From an uncultured Gemmatimonadales bacterium (GTDB lineage: Bacteria > Gemmatimonadota > Gemmatimonadetes > Gemmatimonadales > GWC2-71-9): 64,000 nucleotides of DNA. Shown in pieces: positions 2,409 to 31,134 of the stretch. The stretch's first letter is position 1; each line of letters begins with the position of its first letter. The translations under genes and the position numbers were made by a program. Location of the stretch: the NCBI GenBank assembly GCA_963757525.1, contig CAVWRM010000001.1, positions 3,224,884 to 3,288,883 on the forward strand, read 5' to 3'. A model generated the notes under the pieces. That model ran no database searches and was not told the DNA's origin. It saw only the letters and a program-made list of their open reading frames with translations.

Positions 2409-3302
2409 GTGATGGCCGGTTCTGAGGCCACGACGTTCGGACATGTCGCACTGGCCGGCGCTCCCAACGCCGGCAAGTCCTCGCTGCTCAATGCGCTCGT
2501 CGGCCAGCGGTTGGCGATCGTCAGTCCCCGAGCTCAGACTACACGGCTTCCGGTGATCGGACTGCGGACCGACGATCGCCGGCAGATCGTGTTCCACGAT
2601 CTCCCCGGCCTGCTGGATCCCGCCTATCTCCTCCAGGTCCGCATGCAGAGCGCGGCGGTGAGCGCGCTCGCCGACGTGGACCTGATTCTGCATCTTCATC
2701 CAGCGTCCGATGCACCCGCGCCGTCGTTCACGAGCCTGGCCCGGCTGGATCCGCCGCCATCGGCTCCGGTGCTCGTGGTATACACCAAGAGGGATCTCGT
2801 GAGCGAGCGGCACGCTCTCGACCTGGAGCGGAGCGATCTCGTCGTCTCGGCCAGAACCGGAGCCGGCCTCGACCGTCTGATCGCGCGGACCAGCGGCTAT
2901 CTGCCGCCCGGCGAGCATCGGTTCGATGGCGAAGACGTGGGGACGCAGCCGGTGCGGTTCTTTGCGGGCGAGTACGTACGCGAAGCCGCGTTCGCCCTGC
3001 TTCAGGACGAGGTGCCCTACGCCGTATCGGCCGAGGTGGAGGAGTTTCGCGAAGCCGAACGGCCCGTGTACATTCGGGTCACTCTGTACGTCGAGCGTGA
3101 GTCGCAAAAGCGGATCGTGATCGGCGCCGGAGGGCGCACCATCAAAGCCATCGGCGCCCAGGCGCGCGAGCAGATGGAATCCCTTCTCGGCGCTCCGGTG
3201 TACCTCGATCTCTGGGTCAAGGTGCTGCCCCACTGGAGGGCCGACGCGGCGGCGCTCGCACGGCTCGGATTTCCGGACCCCATTCGGAGGGAGGTTCCGT
3301 GA
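2409..3302 (+). CDS. era: GTPase Era
   Basis: G1 '[14 protein letters not shown]', 'TTR', 'DLPG', 'TKRD'. C-terminal KH-like segment '[27 protein letters not shown]'. An ATG at 2412 is an alternative start. Confidence 0.9.
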
Positions 3303-23469: not shown

Positions 23470-24089
23470 GGGCCTCGCCGGCCAACATCCGGCGGTTCGC
23501 CGCACCGGCCATCAAACTGCTGGCGTCCACGTGGCGGATCAGCACCGAGAACGAAGAACGGTGGCGCCCGCTGTACGAGGCGCGGCGTCCCCACGTCTTT
23601 CTCCTCTGGCACGAGGCCTTGCTTCCGCTTCTCTGGCAACATCGGCATCAGGCGATCACGATCATCGTGAGCACCGCGCGTGACGGCCAGTATCTGGCCG
23701 ATTTTGCCGGCTCGCTGGGGTATGGGGCGGTGCGCGGATCAAGTCACAAGGGAGCCGCCCGCGCCCTCCTCGGCGCGGTCCGCGAGCTGCGGAGCGGCCG
23801 GACCGTGGCCTTTACTCCCGACGGACCCCGGGGGCCGCGGCGGGAGCTCAAGCCGGGCGTCGTGGCCGCCGCGCAGCGGGGCAGAGGCGTCGTCGTGCCG
23901 CTGCATGCCGAGGCAAACCGGGCATGGCGTTTACATTCGTGGGACCGACTTATGATTCCCAAGCCTGCCGCCCGGGTTCGCATCATCTACGGCCGACCGT
24001 TCGAGGTCGCCGAAGGGGACGATGGCCTGTCGCGGGGAGTGGCCGACGCCCTCGAGCGGCTCCAAGAGATCGCGGGAGCGGCCGAGTGA
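23466..24089 (+). CDS. DUF374 / lysophospholipid-acyltransferase-like protein
   Basis: 'FLLWHEALLPL...IIVSTARDGQYLA...GYGAVRGSS.KGAARAL...TPDGPRGP'. Overlaps lpxB and lpxK by 4 nt each. Confidence 0.7.
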   Translation: MRASPANIRRFAAPAIKLLASTWRISTENEERWRPLYEARRPHVFLLWHEALLPLLWQHRHQAITIIVSTARDGQYLADFAGSLGYGAVRGSSHKGAARALLGAVRELRSGRTVAFTPDGPRGPRRELKPGVVAAAQRGRGVVVPLHAEANRAWRLHSWDRLMIPKPAARVRIIYGRPFEVAEGDDGLSRGVADALERLQEIAGAAE

Positions 24090-25126
24090 CGCGTCGGGGG
24101 GACAGCCATCGGGTGCTGCGCTGGCTGTGGACCAGCCGCCGGCCGGACGCGCGGCTTGCCAGGCTCGCCTTGCTCCCGGTCTCCGGACTCTGGCGGGGCG
24201 CGATGGCGGCGCGGGGACTGGCCTATCGCCGCGGCTGGATGACGGTCCAGGACCTCCCGCTGCCCGCCGTGGCCGTCGGGAACCTGACGGTGGGCGGATC
24301 GGGAAAGACCCCGGTCGCCATCTGGGCGGCACGCCACTACGTGAGCCGCGGCCTCCGTCCCGGCATTCTGCTACGGGGCTACGGCGGCGACGAGACGCTG
24401 GTTCACCAGCATGACGTCCCCGAGGCGGTCGTGGTGGCCGACCCCGATCGCGCCGCGGGCGCCGAGCGGGCGCTGGCGCGGGGCGCCGAAGTCCTGGTGC
24501 TGGACGACGCGTATCAGCGCCTCGATGTCCGCCGCGATCTCAACATCGCGGTCATCAGCGCGGAGACCAGTCGCGCCGTCCGCTGGTCGCTGCCCGCCGG
24601 GCCTTGGCGCGAGGGCTGGGAGGCGCTCGATCGGGCCGATGCTCTGATCGTCACCCGGAAGCGCGCCACCTGGGAGGCCGCCCGCACGCTGGCTGAGGAC
24701 TTGGCCGACCGGACCGGACGTCCCGTCGCCGTGGCGCATCTTGGTCTCCGCCACCTCGAGGGGCTCGTGTCCGGTACGCACCACCCGGCGGAGAGTCTCG
24801 CGGGCAAGCGAGTGGTGGCGGCTTCCGGCATCGCTGACCCGGATGCCTTCGTGGCACAGACCAAAGCCACCGGAGCCGCCGTGCAGGTCGCCACGTGGAA
24901 GGACCATCACGCGTATCGCGACGAAGATGTGGCCTGGCTGGCCCACGCGGCCCGGCGCGCCGACTACGTGGTGATCACGCAGAAGGACGCGGTCAAGCTG
25001 CGTGACCGGTGGCCGAATGTCGCGCCGGAGCCGCTGGTGGCCGTGCTCGATCTCGTCTGGGAGGAAGGCGGCGAGCAGATCGCCGCCGCGCTGGATGCCG
25101 TCGTCGCCCCGGTGGAAGGCCTGTAA
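24086..25126 (+). CDS. lpxK: Tetraacyldisaccharide 4'-kinase
   Basis: '[13 protein letters not shown]' P-loop, '[10 protein letters not shown]', 'VLDDAYQ', 'ITQKDAVKL'. GTG start overlaps the DUF374 stop. Confidence 0.85.
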
Positions 25127-25152
25127 TTCACCCTGGAGATCCCGAAAACTCT

Positions 25153-26460
<1,308 letters not shown>

Positions 26461-26925
26461 GTGGAGATCACCCTCCTCGCTGTCGGAAAGCTGAGGCCGG
26501 CGCTGCGGGAGGTCGCGGACGACTACGCCCGGAGGCTCGGCCGGTACTTCAAGCTCCGGGAGGTCGAGGTGAAGGAGGCGAGTCGCGCTCCCACCGTCGA
26601 ACGCCAGCTCGAGGAAGAGGCACGCCGCCTCGGCGGCCGGCTGACGCGCGGCGCGCTGATGGTCGCGCTGTCGCGCCAGGGCTCCCCGCTGGGAAGCCGC
26701 GATCTGGCCGCTGAGGTGGGCCGATGGCGGGTGGCCGCGAGGCCAGTGGATCTCATCGTCGGCGGCTCCAACGGCCTGGGCCGGGACCTGCTGAAGCGCG
26801 CAGCGCTCCGCTGGAGTCTCGGTCCGGCGACGCTGCCTCACGAGCTGGCCCGCGTCGTCGTCCTCGAGCAGCTCTATCGGGCCTGCACGATTCTGGGGGG
26901 AGAGAAGTATCACAAGGGCGGATGA
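26461..26925 (+). CDS. rlmH: 23S rRNA (pseudouridine1915-N3)-methyltransferase (SPOUT)
   Basis: About 154 aa. 'ITLLAVGKL...EY.KRL', 'LIVGGSNGL', 'LSLGPATLPHELARVVVLEQLYRA'. Starts right after the gdhA stop. Confidence 0.88.
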   Translation: MEITLLAVGKLRPALREVADDYARRLGRYFKLREVEVKEASRAPTVERQLEEEARRLGGRLTRGALMVALSRQGSPLGSRDLAAEVGRWRVAARPVDLIVGGSNGLGRDLLKRAALRWSLGPATLPHELARVVVLEQLYRACTILGGEKYHKGG

Positions 26926-27029
26926 AGGCTCAAGGCTCAAGGCTGAAGGCTCAAGGCCGAAGGCTGCAGGCTCTAGGCTGCCGGCTAGGACCCCCGGCTT
27001 TCAGCCTTTAGCCTTGAGCCTTTAGCCGT
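26925..27029. repeat. Heptanucleotide tandem repeat (AAGGCTN)x9 followed by 4 inverted units, forming a long imperfect hairpin
   Basis: Direct read. Units run 26925-26987. The inverted copies CAGCCTT/TAGCCTT/GAGCCTT/TAGCC run 27002-27027. 26941-26966 pairs with 27002-27027 at 23 of 26 positions. Confidence 0.85.
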
Positions 27030-27746
27030 ATGCCCGAATGGTATGAAGAGTGGTTCGGCGAAGAATACCTCCAGCTCTACCCTCATCGTGACGACGCCGA
27101 CGCCGAGCGGATGGTGTCGCTCATCCTCGCTACGGTGCCGTTCGAGCCCGGATGGCGCGTGCTCGACGTGGCCTGCGGGGCCGGGCGCCACGCCCGCGCC
27201 TTCCGGGAGGCCGGCGCCATGTGCTTCGGGGTCGACCTTTCCGCCAGCCTTCTGCGCGTGGCGCGCGGCGCAACCGACGCGCCGCTCATCCGGGCCGACA
27301 TGCGCGTTCTCCCGATCCGGCCCGCCTCGATGGCGCTCACCGTCAATCTCTTTACCAGCTTCGGCTATTTCGAGCACGACGCCGAGCACGGCCACGCGCT
27401 CCAGGAAATGGTGGGGACCGTCCGGCAGGGTGGGTGGTTCGTGATCGACGTCCTCAATCCCTCCGCGGTGAGGGCCGGACTGGTCCCGCACGAAACGGTG
27501 CGGACGGGAAGCGTCTCGGCGAATGTCACGCGAACCATTTCGAAGGACCGCCGGTTTGTGTGCAAGACCATCAAATGGTCTACCGGACGCAAGTTCGTCG
27601 AGCGGGTCAGACTTTTCGAGCCCGGGGACATGATCGCCATGCTGACCAGGGCTGGCGTACGTATCGAGCACCGCTTCGGTGACTACGACGGTCACCCCAT
27701 GACCGCCTCGTCGGCGCGCACGATCCTGATAGGTCGGACCGCATGA
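27030..27746 (+). CDS. Class I SAM-dependent methyltransferase
   Basis: Motif I 'VLDVACGAGRHA', 'GVDLS', 'ADMRVLP', 'LTVNLFTSFGYF'. ATGA overlap with the bshC start. Confidence 0.8.
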   Translation: MPEWYEEWFGEEYLQLYPHRDDADAERMVSLILATVPFEPGWRVLDVACGAGRHARAFREAGAMCFGVDLSASLLRVARGATDAPLIRADMRVLPIRPASMALTVNLFTSFGYFEHDAEHGHALQEMVGTVRQGGWFVIDVLNPSAVRAGLVPHETVRTGSVSANVTRTISKDRRFVCKTIKWSTGRKFVERVRLFEPGDMIAMLTRAGVRIEHRFGDYDGHPMTASSARTILIGRTA

Positions 27747-29272
27747 CGCTCCGGCTGGTTGCCACGCCGCTCGACGTATCCCTCGAGCGGCCCGGTGAAC
27801 GCGAGGGTGGCCTGGACCCCGCCCTCACGGAGGCGTTCTGGCCATCGCCCGCGGTGGAGGAAGGGCTCCGCCGTCTCCGTCTTCCCGGCGCCGTGGCCGT
27901 GACTTCCGGCCAGCAACCGGGACTCTTCACCGGGCCGCTGTACACGGTCTACAAGGCTCTCTCGACCGCTGCTCTCGCTCGGCGGCTCGAGCAGATGTGG
28001 CAGAGACCCGTGGTCCCGATCTTCTGGCTCGCCGGAGACGACCACGACTTCGCTGAGGCCAGCGAGGCGTCCTGGATCGGAGCCGATGGATCCCTCAAGA
28101 CCGTGTCGCTCGCGCCGCGGCTCCCGGACGCACCGCTCACCCCGATGTACCGCGAGCCGCTCGGCGAGTCGGTGGTGCCCGCCACGCAGGCCCTGCTCGA
28201 GGGGCTCCCACCATCCGAGTTCCGCGAGGAGACGGCGGACTGGATCGCCCGGCACTATCACCCCGACCGGACAGTGGCGGCGAGCTTCGCCGGGGCGATG
28301 GCCGAGCTGCTCGCGCCGTTCGGCATCGTCTGTTTCGACTCCACCCACGCGGCCTCCAAGCGGGCTGCTGCCCCTCTGCTCGTGCGCGCGCTTCGACAGG
28401 CGCGGGCGCTCGACGACGATCTCGATCGATTTGCCGAATCGCAGGGCGCCACGGCTCGCACCTCCGGTGTCACGGTCGGTGACGGGGCATCCCTCGTCAT
28501 GCTGGAGGCGTCGCAGGGGAGGGACCGCCTCATCCTCGATGGCGAAGTGTTCGTTACCCGCCGCAGCAAGGAGCGGTTCGGCCTTTCGGCCCTCGAGCGG
28601 ATCGCGCGCGAGGAGCCGGCTCGGCTCTCCCCGAATGTCCTGCTCCGGCCCGTGGTCGAGAGCGCACTCCTTCCGACGGTGGCGTACCTCGGCGGCCCGG
28701 GTGAGCTTCGCTACCTCTCGCTTACGCCGCCGGTTTACCAGCGCCTGGAGGTAGTCCGGCAGCGCCCGCTGCCCCGCTGGTCGGGCATCCTGGTCGAGGC
28801 GCGGGTGGACCGGGTGCTCGAGAAGTTCGGCATCACCCTCGACGACCTGTCCGCGCCGCCGGGCGCGCTCGAGTCGAGGCTGGTTCGATCGCAGCTTCCC
28901 CCGGAGGCCTCCGAGGCGCTCTCGAGCCTCCGCGCGGCGCTCGAGACCGGGTACCGTGCGCTGGCCACCGTGGCCCGGGAGATCGATCCCACGCTCGAGC
29001 GGTCGATCCAGGGCACGCTGCAGCAGGCGCTCGGCGGCAGCCAGGACGCCGAGCGGAAGCTGGTCCAGCACCTGAAGCGGAGACAGGAGACCGAGCTTTC
29101 CCAGCTCGCGCGCGCCCGGACGACGATTCTCCCGAACGGCAAGCCGCAGGAGCGCGTGCTGACCATCGCGCCGTTCCTCGCCCGCTACGGCCGCGACCTG
29201 CTCGTCCGGCTTTCGAGCGCCATGGATCACTGGTATGCGGACGGTCTTGTAGGGCCGTCCAAACCCGCGTAG
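27743..29272 (+). CDS. bshC: Bacillithiol biosynthesis cysteine-adding enzyme BshC
   Basis: 'SGQQPGLFTGPLYTVYKALS', 'PIFWLAGDDHDFAE', 'SPNVLLRPVVESALLPTVAYLGGPGELRY', 'PQERVLTIAPFLARYG'. These match my recollection of B. subtilis BshC (YllA). Confidence 0.85.
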   Translation: MTLRLVATPLDVSLERPGEREGGLDPALTEAFWPSPAVEEGLRRLRLPGAVAVTSGQQPGLFTGPLYTVYKALSTAALARRLEQMWQRPVVPIFWLAGDDHDFAEASEASWIGADGSLKTVSLAPRLPDAPLTPMYREPLGESVVPATQALLEGLPPSEFREETADWIARHYHPDRTVAASFAGAMAELLAPFGIVCFDSTHAASKRAAAPLLVRALRQARALDDDLDRFAESQGATARTSGVTVGDGASLVMLEASQGRDRLILDGEVFVTRRSKERFGLSALERIAREEPARLSPNVLLRPVVESALLPTVAYLGGPGELRYLSLTPPVYQRLEVVRQRPLPRWSGILVEARVDRVLEKFGITLDDLSAPPGALESRLVRSQLPPEASEALSSLRAALETGYRALATVAREIDPTLERSIQGTLQQALGGSQDAERKLVQHLKRRQETELSQLARARTTILPNGKPQERVLTIAPFLARYGRDLLVRLSSAMDHWYADGLVGPSKPA

Positions 29273-29281
29273 ACTCGACCC

Positions 29282-29569
29282 ATGTCGGTCATCGCGCTCA
29301 TTCTCCTCGTGGCGCTTCTCATCCCCATCATGGGCATCGTGCTGGACTCGCCGATCGGGCGTGCGCTCGCCCGGCGGCTCGAGGGTTCACCCGCCGCGCC
29401 GCCGGCCGTCGGAGATCTGCTGAAGAAGGTGGAGACGTTGGAGGCGGAGGTCGAGCAGCTCAGCCGTACCGTGGACTCGCTGCAGGAAGAAACCGCCTTT
29501 CTCCATCGCCTGCTGGCCGATCCCTCCGCGCCGTCCCGCTCCACCCTGCCACCGCCCCCGGGAACCTGA
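29282..29569 (+). CDS. Hypothetical membrane-anchored coiled-coil protein
   Basis: N-terminal TM 'VIALILLVALLIPIMGIVL', heptad-like 'LLKKVETLEAEVEQLSRTVDSLQEETAFL', proline-rich tail. High GC3. No family recognised. Confidence 0.5.
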   Translation: MSVIALILLVALLIPIMGIVLDSPIGRALARRLEGSPAAPPAVGDLLKKVETLEAEVEQLSRTVDSLQEETAFLHRLLADPSAPSRSTLPPPPGT

Positions 29570-29601
29570 GCGCTCCCCGGGCTCGAGCCGCGCGACCGGC
29601 G

Positions 29602-31134
29602 GTGATGGTTGCCGCGGGCATCCTCGCCAGCCGCATCCTCGGCCTGGTCAGAAATCGGGTCTTCGCCCATTTCTTCGGGACGTCCGACGCCGCGGACGCC
29701 TTCAACGCCGCCTTCCGGATTCCCAATTTTCTGCAGAACCTCTTTGGCGAAGGGGTGCTCTCCGCATCGTTCATTCCCGTCTATGCCGGGCTCCGCGCCC
29801 GGGGCGATGACGCGGAGGCCAGACGAGTCGCCGGCGCCGTCGCCGCCCTGCTGGCGCTCGTCACGTCGGTGCTGGTCCTGCTCGGAGTCCTGCTCACGCC
29901 GTGGCTCATCTCGATCATCGCCCCAGGATTCCATGGGGAGAAACGGCTGGAAACGGTCCGTCTCGTACGGATCCTCTTTCCCGGAGCGGGGCTGCTGGCA
30001 ATGTCGGCCTGGTGCCTCGGCGTACTCAACAGTCACCGGAAGTTCCTGCTCTCCTACTCGGCCCCGGTCATCTGGAATCTCGCCATCATCGTCGCCCTGG
30101 TTTGGCTCGGTCCCGGGCAGGCGCAGTATCCCCTCGCCGAGATCGCGGCCTGGGGCGCGGTGGTGGGAAGCTTTCTCCAGTTCGTCGTGCAGTACCCGAC
30201 CGTCTACCGGATCCTGGAGGGGACCTGGCCACGGCTGGTGCGGGGGTCGGCGGCCGTGGCCACCGTGATCAGGAACTTCTTCCCGGTATTCGTCGGCCGG
30301 GGCGTGGTCCAGATCAGTGCCTATGTGGACACCGTGCTCGCGAGCCTGCTGCCCACCGGCGCGGTCGCCGGTCTCTCCTACGCCCAGGTGATCTACACGC
30401 TTCCGGTGAGCCTTTTCGGCATGTCCGTCTCTGCGGCCGAGCTTCCGGAGATGGCGAGCGCGACGGGCAGCGAGGCCGAGCGCGCGACGTATCTCCGGGG
30501 CCGGCTCGACGCCGGGCTGCGCCAGATCGCCTTCATGGTCGTGCCGTCGGGCGTGGCCTTCATCGCGCTGGGCGACATCGTCATCGGGGCCTTGTATCAG
30601 TCCGGCGAGTTCACTCCGGCCATGACGCTGTACGTCTGGGGCATCCTGGCCGGGTCGGCGGTCGGCCTGCTCGCGTCGACGCTGGGACGCCTGTACGCCT
30701 CGACGTTCTGGGCACTCCACGACACCAGGACTCCGCTGCGCACCGCTACGATCCGGGTCGGCCTCACCATCGGACTGGGCTATCTCTTCGCCCTGCCGCT
30801 CCCCCGTGCGCTGGGCATCGAGCCCCGTTGGGGCGCGGCCGGCCTCACCGCCTCCGCCGGAATCGCGGGCTGGGTGGAGTTCCTGCTTCTCCGACACCGG
30901 CTCACCCCGCGGATCGGGCGAACCGGCCTCCCGCTGGGGCTCTCGGCCCGCCTCTGGGGAAGCGCCGTGCTGGCGGCGGCGGCCGCGCTCGGGCTGCGCC
31001 GGCTGCTTCCGGTGCAGCACCCGATCGTCCTGGCGATATTTCTCCTCGGGACATACGGCGCGGCGTATCTCGCGCTGACCGCCGGCCTCGGGGTGGCCGA
31101 GGCCAGAGGGCTCCTCCGACGACTGAGGCGATGA
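29602..31134 (+). CDS. murJ: Lipid II flippase MurJ (MviN)
   Basis: 'SRILGLVRNRVFAHFFG', 'DAFNAAFRIPNFLQNLFGEG.LSASFIPV', about 14 hydrophobic segments. Confidence 0.88.
   Translation: MMVAAGILASRILGLVRNRVFAHFFGTSDAADAFNAAFRIPNFLQNLFGEGVLSASFIPVYAGLRARGDDAEARRVAGAVAALLALVTSVLVLLGVLLTPWLISIIAPGFHGEKRLETVRLVRILFPGAGLLAMSAWCLGVLNSHRKFLLSYSAPVIWNLAIIVALVWLGPGQAQYPLAEIAAWGAVVGSFLQFVVQYPTVYRILEGTWPRLVRGSAAVATVIRNFFPVFVGRGVVQISAYVDTVLASLLPTGAVAGLSYAQVIYTLPVSLFGMSVSAAELPEMASATGSEAERATYLRGRLDAGLRQIAFMVVPSGVAFIALGDIVIGALYQSGEFTPAMTLYVWGILAGSAVGLLASTLGRLYASTFWALHDTRTPLRTATIRVGLTIGLGYLFALPLPRALGIEPRWGAAGLTASAGIAGWVEFLLLRHRLTPRIGRTGLPLGLSARLWGSAVLAAAAALGLRRLLPVQHPIVLAIFLLGTYGAAYLALTAGLGVAEARGLLRRLRR

Follow-up and report, generated by a model that had tools for sequence, protein, structure and literature searches.

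A methyltransferase gene overlapping bshC points to probable N-methyl-bacillithiol synthesis in a Gemmatimonadales bacterium

Does a bacterium whose methyltransferase gene runs directly into bshC, the gene for the cysteine-adding enzyme of bacillithiol (BSH) synthesis, methylate its bacillithiol? The question is raised by a 64,000-nucleotide stretch of DNA (the window) from an uncultured Gemmatimonadales bacterium (assembly GCA_963757525.1, contig CAVWRM010000001.1, positions 3,224,884 to 3,288,883). In this window, a first-pass annotation made from the letters alone noted an S-adenosylmethionine (SAM)-dependent methyltransferase gene overlapping bshC, and it suggested synthesis of N-methyl-bacillithiol (N-Me-BSH), the product of the methyltransferase NmbA in green sulfur bacteria. 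From the comparisons described below, we consider it highly probable that the 238-amino-acid (aa) protein is NmbA, methylating BSH to N-Me-BSH, and that its gene is co-expressed or coupled with bshC. This soil-type Gemmatimonadales bacterium very probably makes N-methyl-bacillithiol. The features at the center of the question are the following.

27030-27746, + strand: nmbA, class I SAM-dependent methyltransferase, putative bacillithiol N-methyltransferase ortholog, 238 aa, ATG start (9RI2 match)
27743-27746, + strand: ATGA stop/start overlap of nmbA and bshC, 4 nucleotides (nt) (sequence)
27743-29272, + strand: bshC, cysteine-adding enzyme of bacillithiol synthesis, 509 aa, ATG start (TIGR03998)

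Family libraries leave the methyltransferase open reading frame (ORF) with a generic name: Pfam placed it in the class I SAM families Methyltransf_25/11/23/31, and no NCBIfam model reached its cut-off. When all PDB chains were searched, the best match was 9RI2_A (E 3.5e-41, 144.5 bits; residues 3-236 of 238 on 15-260 of 266), followed by the sugar N,N-dimethyltransferase 3BXO with 47.6 bits only. The 9RI2 entry is the crystallised NmbA of Chlorobaculum tepidum (CtNmbA, CT1040), an identity that we confirmed. Deletion of CT1040 abolishes N-Me-BSH and leaves BSH to accumulate, while deletion of CT1213, a second methyltransferase of C. tepidum, is without effect (Hiras 2018, PMC6282198). For reciprocal searches, a Chlorobiaceae metagenome-assembled genome (MAG) served as a proxy for C. 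tepidum; its protein L135 was taken as the CT1040 ortholog because it scores 437.5 bits against 9RI2. The window protein retrieved L135 with 142.2 bits (next hit there, 28.5), and L135 retrieved the nmbA ORF in the window's genome with 139.6 bits (next, 27.6), making the two reciprocal best hits. The same relationship held with a homolog of Paenibacillus nitricinens, a congeneric proxy for the NmbA of P. polymyxa (PpNmbA), at 152.5 bits one way and 149.2 bits the other. No nmbA paralog above 31 bits was present in the window's genome. Thus, orthology to CT1040, which the first-pass annotation could not judge by eye, holds: 9RI2 is the best match, and the reciprocal comparison proposed there, run via the Chlorobiaceae ortholog, gave best hits both ways with wide margins.

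The alignment to 9RI2 also preserves the residues expected of the enzyme. Motif I (VLDVACGAGRH, residues 44-54) and the acidic residues D69 (motif II) and D90 (motif III) fall on their 9RI2 counterparts and are invariant across the 33 homologs from 5 phyla that make up our conservation alignment (A2). In the FTSFGYF block, with GYF at 112-114, Y113/F114 correspond to Y134/F135 of CtNmbA, which stabilise the SAM adenine; conserved arginines lie in the substrate cleft of that enzyme (PMC12719100). R20, R53, R92, R168, R194, and R230 of the window protein align to 9RI2 arginines; four of the six are invariant across the 33 homologs, and R194 and R230 are nearly so. The N-terminal cap segment WYEEWF...YLQLYPHRD is likewise kept. 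Altogether, the window protein and CtNmbA share the same length class, a full-length alignment, motif I (VLDxACGAGRH), the aromatic block FxSFGYF, the cap segment WFEEWF...Y..Y.HRD, and the conserved arginines. Identity amounts to 32% to 9RI2 in the structural alignment, 39% to the Chlorobiaceae ortholog, and 41% to the Paenibacillus nitricinens homolog. The published homology criteria for NmbA relative to CT1040 are an E-value of <= 1e-20, coverage of > 80%, identity of > 25%, and similar length (PMC12719100). The window protein lies within all of these limits, its E-value coming from a PDB-sized database and the criteria's from RefSeq. On this sequence evidence, the methyltransferase is a true NmbA ortholog and not a CT1213-type or other paralog.

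The partner gene was named correctly in the first-pass annotation. The bshC product scores 355.6 bits against TIGR03998 (thiol_BshC; cut-off, 265.8), with residues 30-497 on profile positions 56-522, and both BshC domains were matched, the Rossmann-like_BshC domain (PF10079, 210.8 bits) and the C-terminal coiled-coil CC_BshC (PF24850, 90.3 bits). It also matches Bacillus subtilis BshC (4WBD) with 136.3 bits (residues 34-486 on 70-521). The remaining pathway genes, for which a search had been proposed, are both present elsewhere in the genome above their curated cut-offs: bshA (TIGR03999, 517.6 bits) and bshB (TIGR04001, 237.7 bits). The BshA/BshB/BshC gene set is therefore complete in this host. 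Moreover, the genome carries a bacillithiol disulfide reductase (YpdA/Bdr, 406.8 bits) and a bacilliredoxin (198.9 bits), both above cut-off; YtxJ (TIGR04019) was not found in it, and no glutathione synthetase exceeded the family cut-off (best, 57.8 bits versus 299). The host genome measures 4.11 Mb and belongs to a Gemmatimonadales family known mostly from metagenome bins. All of the closest public-genome loci are from Gemmatimonadota (Gemmatimonadales/Gemmatimonadaceae MAGs), so the earlier description of the host as diderm and Fibrobacteres-Chlorobi-Bacteroidetes (FCB)-like was right.

The ATGA shared by the methyltransferase stop and the bshC start at 27743-27746 is real. Both reading frames can be read out from the junction letters ACC GCA TGA CGC, with GCA TGA in the nmbA frame and ATG ACG in the bshC frame, an arrangement that is typical of translational coupling. 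Because nmbA ends inside the bshC start codon, NmbA and BshC would be made from one mRNA, probably with coupled translation. Of 90 related loci with both genes resolvable, 62 showed a 4-nt NTGA overlap and 6 a 1-nt TGATG overlap, counts obtained with a script that takes the candidate start nearest the stop and is thus biased towards finding overlaps. In about 40 loci, the BshC alignment starts with residue 1 on the overlapping start codon. The overlap of nmbA and bshC is not chance.

To place the pair in the phylum, we analyzed 121 evenly drawn Gemmatimonadota genomes, counting as NmbA-type any protein with >= 110 bits, plus one truncated copy. bshC was present in 112 of the 121 genomes and an NmbA-type methyltransferase in 65. 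By coordinate comparison, bshC directly follows the NmbA-type gene, with both on one contig and one strand, in 64 of these 65; the remaining genome (G024), a bin of 84% completeness, yielded no bshC anywhere. The 64 include two unpublished genomes (G057 and G097); leaving these out gives 62 of 63 and alters none of the conclusions. tblastn of the fetched loci confirmed the pair in 35 of 35 (one locus from G057, L025, is included in this check and in the 90-locus junction count). Beyond the phylum sample, 80 further loci from public genomes were inspected with 3-kb flanks. Here the pair recurred in Gemmatimonadota loci, including those of Palauibacter and Longimicrobiales, and in 14 loci from Acidobacteriota, of which nine bear the label Thermoanaerobaculia; it was absent from the 3-kb flanks of the Ignavibacteria, Melioribacteraceae, Kapaibacterium, Chlorobiaceae, Paenibacillus, Brevibacillus, and Holophagaceae loci examined. 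Thus, the link between the methyltransferase and bshC is conserved in other genomes, contrary to what would have refuted the first-pass annotation by its own account, a methyltransferase unrelated to NmbA and unlinked to bshC elsewhere.

One of these further loci (L065, JBLMWC010000031.1) comes from a MAG labelled "Bacillota bacterium" and carries the same five-gene block as the window, rlmH-nmbA-bshC-small ORF-murJ, at 55-68% identity. Since the tree nests it within Gemmatimonadales, either the label or the contig binning is probably wrong.

The conserved order rlmH, nmbA, bshC, 95-aa ORF, murJ embeds the pair in a wider backbone, whose other members in the window are as follows.

26461-26925, + strand: rlmH, 23S rRNA pseudouridine-1915 N3-methyltransferase (PF02590 SPOUT_MTase, 141.4 bits)
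26925-27029, no strand assigned: hairpin of AAGGCTN heptamer repeats, 105 nt (RNA fold)
29282-29569, + strand: 95-aa ORF, hydrophobic N-terminal segment followed by a coiled-coil-like stretch (translation, tblastn)
29602-31134, + strand: murJ, lipid II flippase (PF03023, 300.6 bits)

Against the NCBIfam RlmH models, the rlmH ORF scores <=122 bits, under their cut-offs. In the related loci, rlmH lies upstream in 84 and murJ downstream in 48. We then compared 10 genomes that have bshC and no NmbA-type hit. In 8 of the 10, rlmH is followed directly by bshC across a short spacer, and in the other 2, rlmH was not detected within the fetched stretch; murJ lies downstream of bshC in all 10, and the 95-aa ORF is present in 7. 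Therefore, nmbA occupies a single fixed site, where it is either cleanly present or cleanly missing. The 95-aa ORF itself starts 10 nt after bshC and always stands between bshC and murJ; tblastn matches to it occur in 36 loci, Longimicrobiales among them, it is found across Gemmatimonadales and Longimicrobiales with or without nmbA, and Pfam and NCBIfam returned only sub-threshold coiled-coil matches for it.

The N-terminus of BshC was considered as a possible correlate of nmbA. In the window protein it is shorter than the profile, with the first ~55 positions of TIGR03998 unmatched, and the protein begins 36 residues later than B. subtilis BshC (4WBD). BshC proteins of the window's family (f1) and a neighbouring family leave the first ~50-70 profile positions unmatched, whereas those of Longimicrobiales and more distant classes match from position 3. 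A tie to nmbA was rejected, as genomes of family f1 without nmbA have an equally short N-terminus and distant lineages with nmbA have a full one.

A maximum-likelihood tree of 89 homologs placed the window protein inside an 85-row NmbA-type clade, split from a class of unlinked Gemmatimonadaceae paralogs with 100% support in the Shimodaira-Hasegawa-like approximate likelihood ratio test (SH-aLRT). Within Gemmatimonadota, the methyltransferase tree broadly tracks taxonomy, as would fit vertical descent of nmbA with repeated loss. An AlphaFold2 model of the window NmbA, built with 33 homologs, has a mean predicted local distance difference test (pLDDT) score of 92.6 and cap strands at 154-194, and its top Foldseek hit in the PDB is 9RI2. 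In the CtNmbA crystal, a narrow four-stranded beta cap forms a "molecular basket," which AlphaFold mis-predicts (PMC12719100).

The unlinked Gemmatimonadaceae class (e.g., L055-L058, from G016, G084, G040, and G010) has the same fold and length as the bshC-linked class, and its best PDB match is also 9RI2. It differs in scoring 70-95 bits against 9RI2 versus ~144 for the linked class, in being 28-33% identical to the window protein, in never adjoining bshC, and in forming a separate clade. Many Gemmatimonadaceae genomes carry it, and G040, G036, G047, and G052 carry both classes. By the published BLAST criteria, the unlinked class might count as NmbA.

Several observations weigh against taking the window protein as a bacillithiol methylase expressed together with BshC. 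Its identity to CtNmbA is low, only about 32-39%, and the experimentally validated lineages, Chlorobiaceae and Paenibacillaceae, form a sister subclade in the tree and do not bracket it. In the structure model, the N-terminal 20 residues, which are part of the substrate cap, have a pLDDT of 59-69, and the template modelling (TM) score to 9RI2 (0.72-0.76) is no better than that to other small-molecule N-methyltransferases. Upstream, only 2 nt separate the end of the strong hairpin from the ATG of nmbA, and a scan of 26300-29800, in itself of little information, found no sigma-70-like promoter.

If the likeness to NmbA did not extend to the substrate, the window protein could be an NmbA-like paralog acting on another small amine, its position beside bshC being a historical accident held in place by the overlap. 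The fold and cap type are indeed common to sugar, peptide, and glycine N-methyltransferases at similar TM scores, a second NmbA-like class in Gemmatimonadaceae is unlinked to bshC, and outlying homologs may methylate other acceptors (Hammerstad 2025, PMC12719100). Nonetheless, we regard this account as quite unlikely in view of the reciprocal best-hit relationship with the CT1040 lineage (margins of > 110 bits), the conserved substrate-cleft residues, the retention of bshC linkage across several Gemmatimonadota orders and a second phylum, and the clean presence or absence of nmbA at a single site beside bshC. The gene order, methylase and then ligase, would also suit methylation of cysteine, or of a donor of it, ahead of its ligation to glucosamine-malate (GlcN-malate) by BshC. 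To our knowledge, no one has reconstituted the ligase activity of BshC in vitro, so the identity of its actual cysteine donor is still in doubt, which lends this order of events some appeal. It is very improbable all the same: in assays in vitro, reduced BSH is methylated directly by CtNmbA and PpNmbA, which are inactive on the bacillithiol disulfide BSSB, glycine, and glutathione (GSH) (PMC12719100), N-methyl-cysteine has never been seen in C. tepidum and its nmbA mutant accumulates BSH (PMC6282198), and relatives without nmbA retain the same bshC.

Nor do we give much weight to adjacent but separate expression of the two genes, in which the ATGA overlap would have no regulatory meaning. Overlaps of 4 nt are very common in this compact, GC-rich genome. 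However, since the genes overlap, there is no intergenic room for a promoter or terminator between them; the same overlap register recurs in 62 of the 90 loci, and a terminator scan of 26300-29800 returned only two overlapping weak hits, both within nmbA, while shuffled sequences gave hits at least as often. Separate expression thus seems very unlikely.

For the nmbA-bshC pair, then, we infer co-transcription, translational coupling, substrate, and product as follows. BshA, BshB, and BshC would build bacillithiol, and NmbA would use SAM to methylate reduced bacillithiol on its cysteine amine, yielding N-methyl-bacillithiol, with translation of bshC probably coupled to that of nmbA. If the methylase is made whenever BshC is made, methylation would be a constitutive final step of biosynthesis and not a conditional modification. 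A further possibility, which we consider unlikely, is that the conserved coupling in Gemmatimonadota and Thermoanaerobaculia goes beyond co-expression, with NmbA and BshC forming a physical pair that hands BSH straight to the methylase and keeps the pool of free BSH very small. If that were true, co-expressing the gene pair could offer a route to reconstituting the cysteine-adding activity of BshC.

Much of this picture has precedent. Synthesis of BSH or N-Me-BSH in Gemmatimonadota was already predicted by Hiras 2018 (PMC6282198), and Hammerstad 2025 named Gemmatimonadota as frequent NmbA carriers, with 8/13 RefSeq species in the supplement (PMC12719100). The NmbA proteins of Palauibacter, Longimicrobium, Pseudogemmatithrix, and Gemmatimonas sp. 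in Supplementary Dataset 1 of that paper belong to the same phylum and the same predicted complete N-Me-BSH pathway; they are given as accessions only, without gene neighbourhood. As NmbA has been characterised in vitro and crystallised and Gemmatimonadota have been listed (PMC12719100), the idea of N-Me-BSH synthesis in the first-pass annotation is correct but largely not new. The gene arrangement distinguishes the window from the studied systems. C. tepidum likewise has bshA, bshB, and bshC, but its nmbA (CT1040) and bshC (CT1558, a locus tag from the paper's methods) have locus tags that are far apart, whereas the two genes overlap here, and in the Chlorobiaceae locus examined, no bshC lies within 3 kb of nmbA. 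PpNmbA resembles the window protein through its P. nitricinens relative, the 41% identical reciprocal best hit, yet none of the Paenibacillus loci examined has bshC adjoining the NmbA gene. The searched literature, including PMC12719100 and PMC6282198, contains no mention of the nmbA-bshC operon link or of presence/absence at the rlmH|bshC site. Accordingly, the literature already covers the NmbA family and its occurrence in Gemmatimonadota; what appears to be new is the conserved operon link alone.

The hairpin upstream of nmbA fills the entire rlmH-nmbA spacer and is strong in the RNA fold (-75.4 kcal/mol, z = -5.76). Its three-unit heptamer pattern has 9 matches in the window, where 0 are expected, and 217 genome-wide, with 0 in the reversed control; the dozens of genome sites are often inverted arrays. 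The AAGGCTN repeats look like a dispersed intergenic family resembling repetitive extragenic palindromic (REP) elements. One copy lies ~120 nt past the 3' end of bshB (G000:C1:2835429-2835455), probably a coincidence because there are so many copies. In L059, the closest relative, the rlmH match runs to 2974 and nmbA begins at 3001, a gap too small for a hairpin of this kind. A role as a dedicated nmbA-bshC regulator is therefore unlikely, and the hairpin is probably not a dedicated part of the system.

Upstream of rlmH lie lpxK (23924-25126) and, between it and rlmH, a Glu/Leu/Phe/Val dehydrogenase gene, whose longest ORF (25009-26460) overlaps the end of lpxK. The Pfam match of this ORF begins at residue 102, so its true start is probably further downstream.

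In terms of biology, these results give a firm functional name to a gene left generic by current family libraries. As its main low-molecular-weight thiol, this Gemmatimonadales lineage is predicted to use N-methyl-bacillithiol in place of bacillithiol or glutathione. Hammerstad 2025 (PMC12719100) did not decide between methylation as a fixed closing step of biosynthesis and methylation as a conditional modification; the conserved nmbA-bshC overlap argues for the fixed step, in two phyla. Relatives with the rlmH-[nmbA]-bshC-small ORF-murJ block, with versus without nmbA, provide a natural comparison set for the benefit of the methyl group. The linkage is a modest addition to what is known of NmbA, offering independent genomic support for its function and a guide for experiments.

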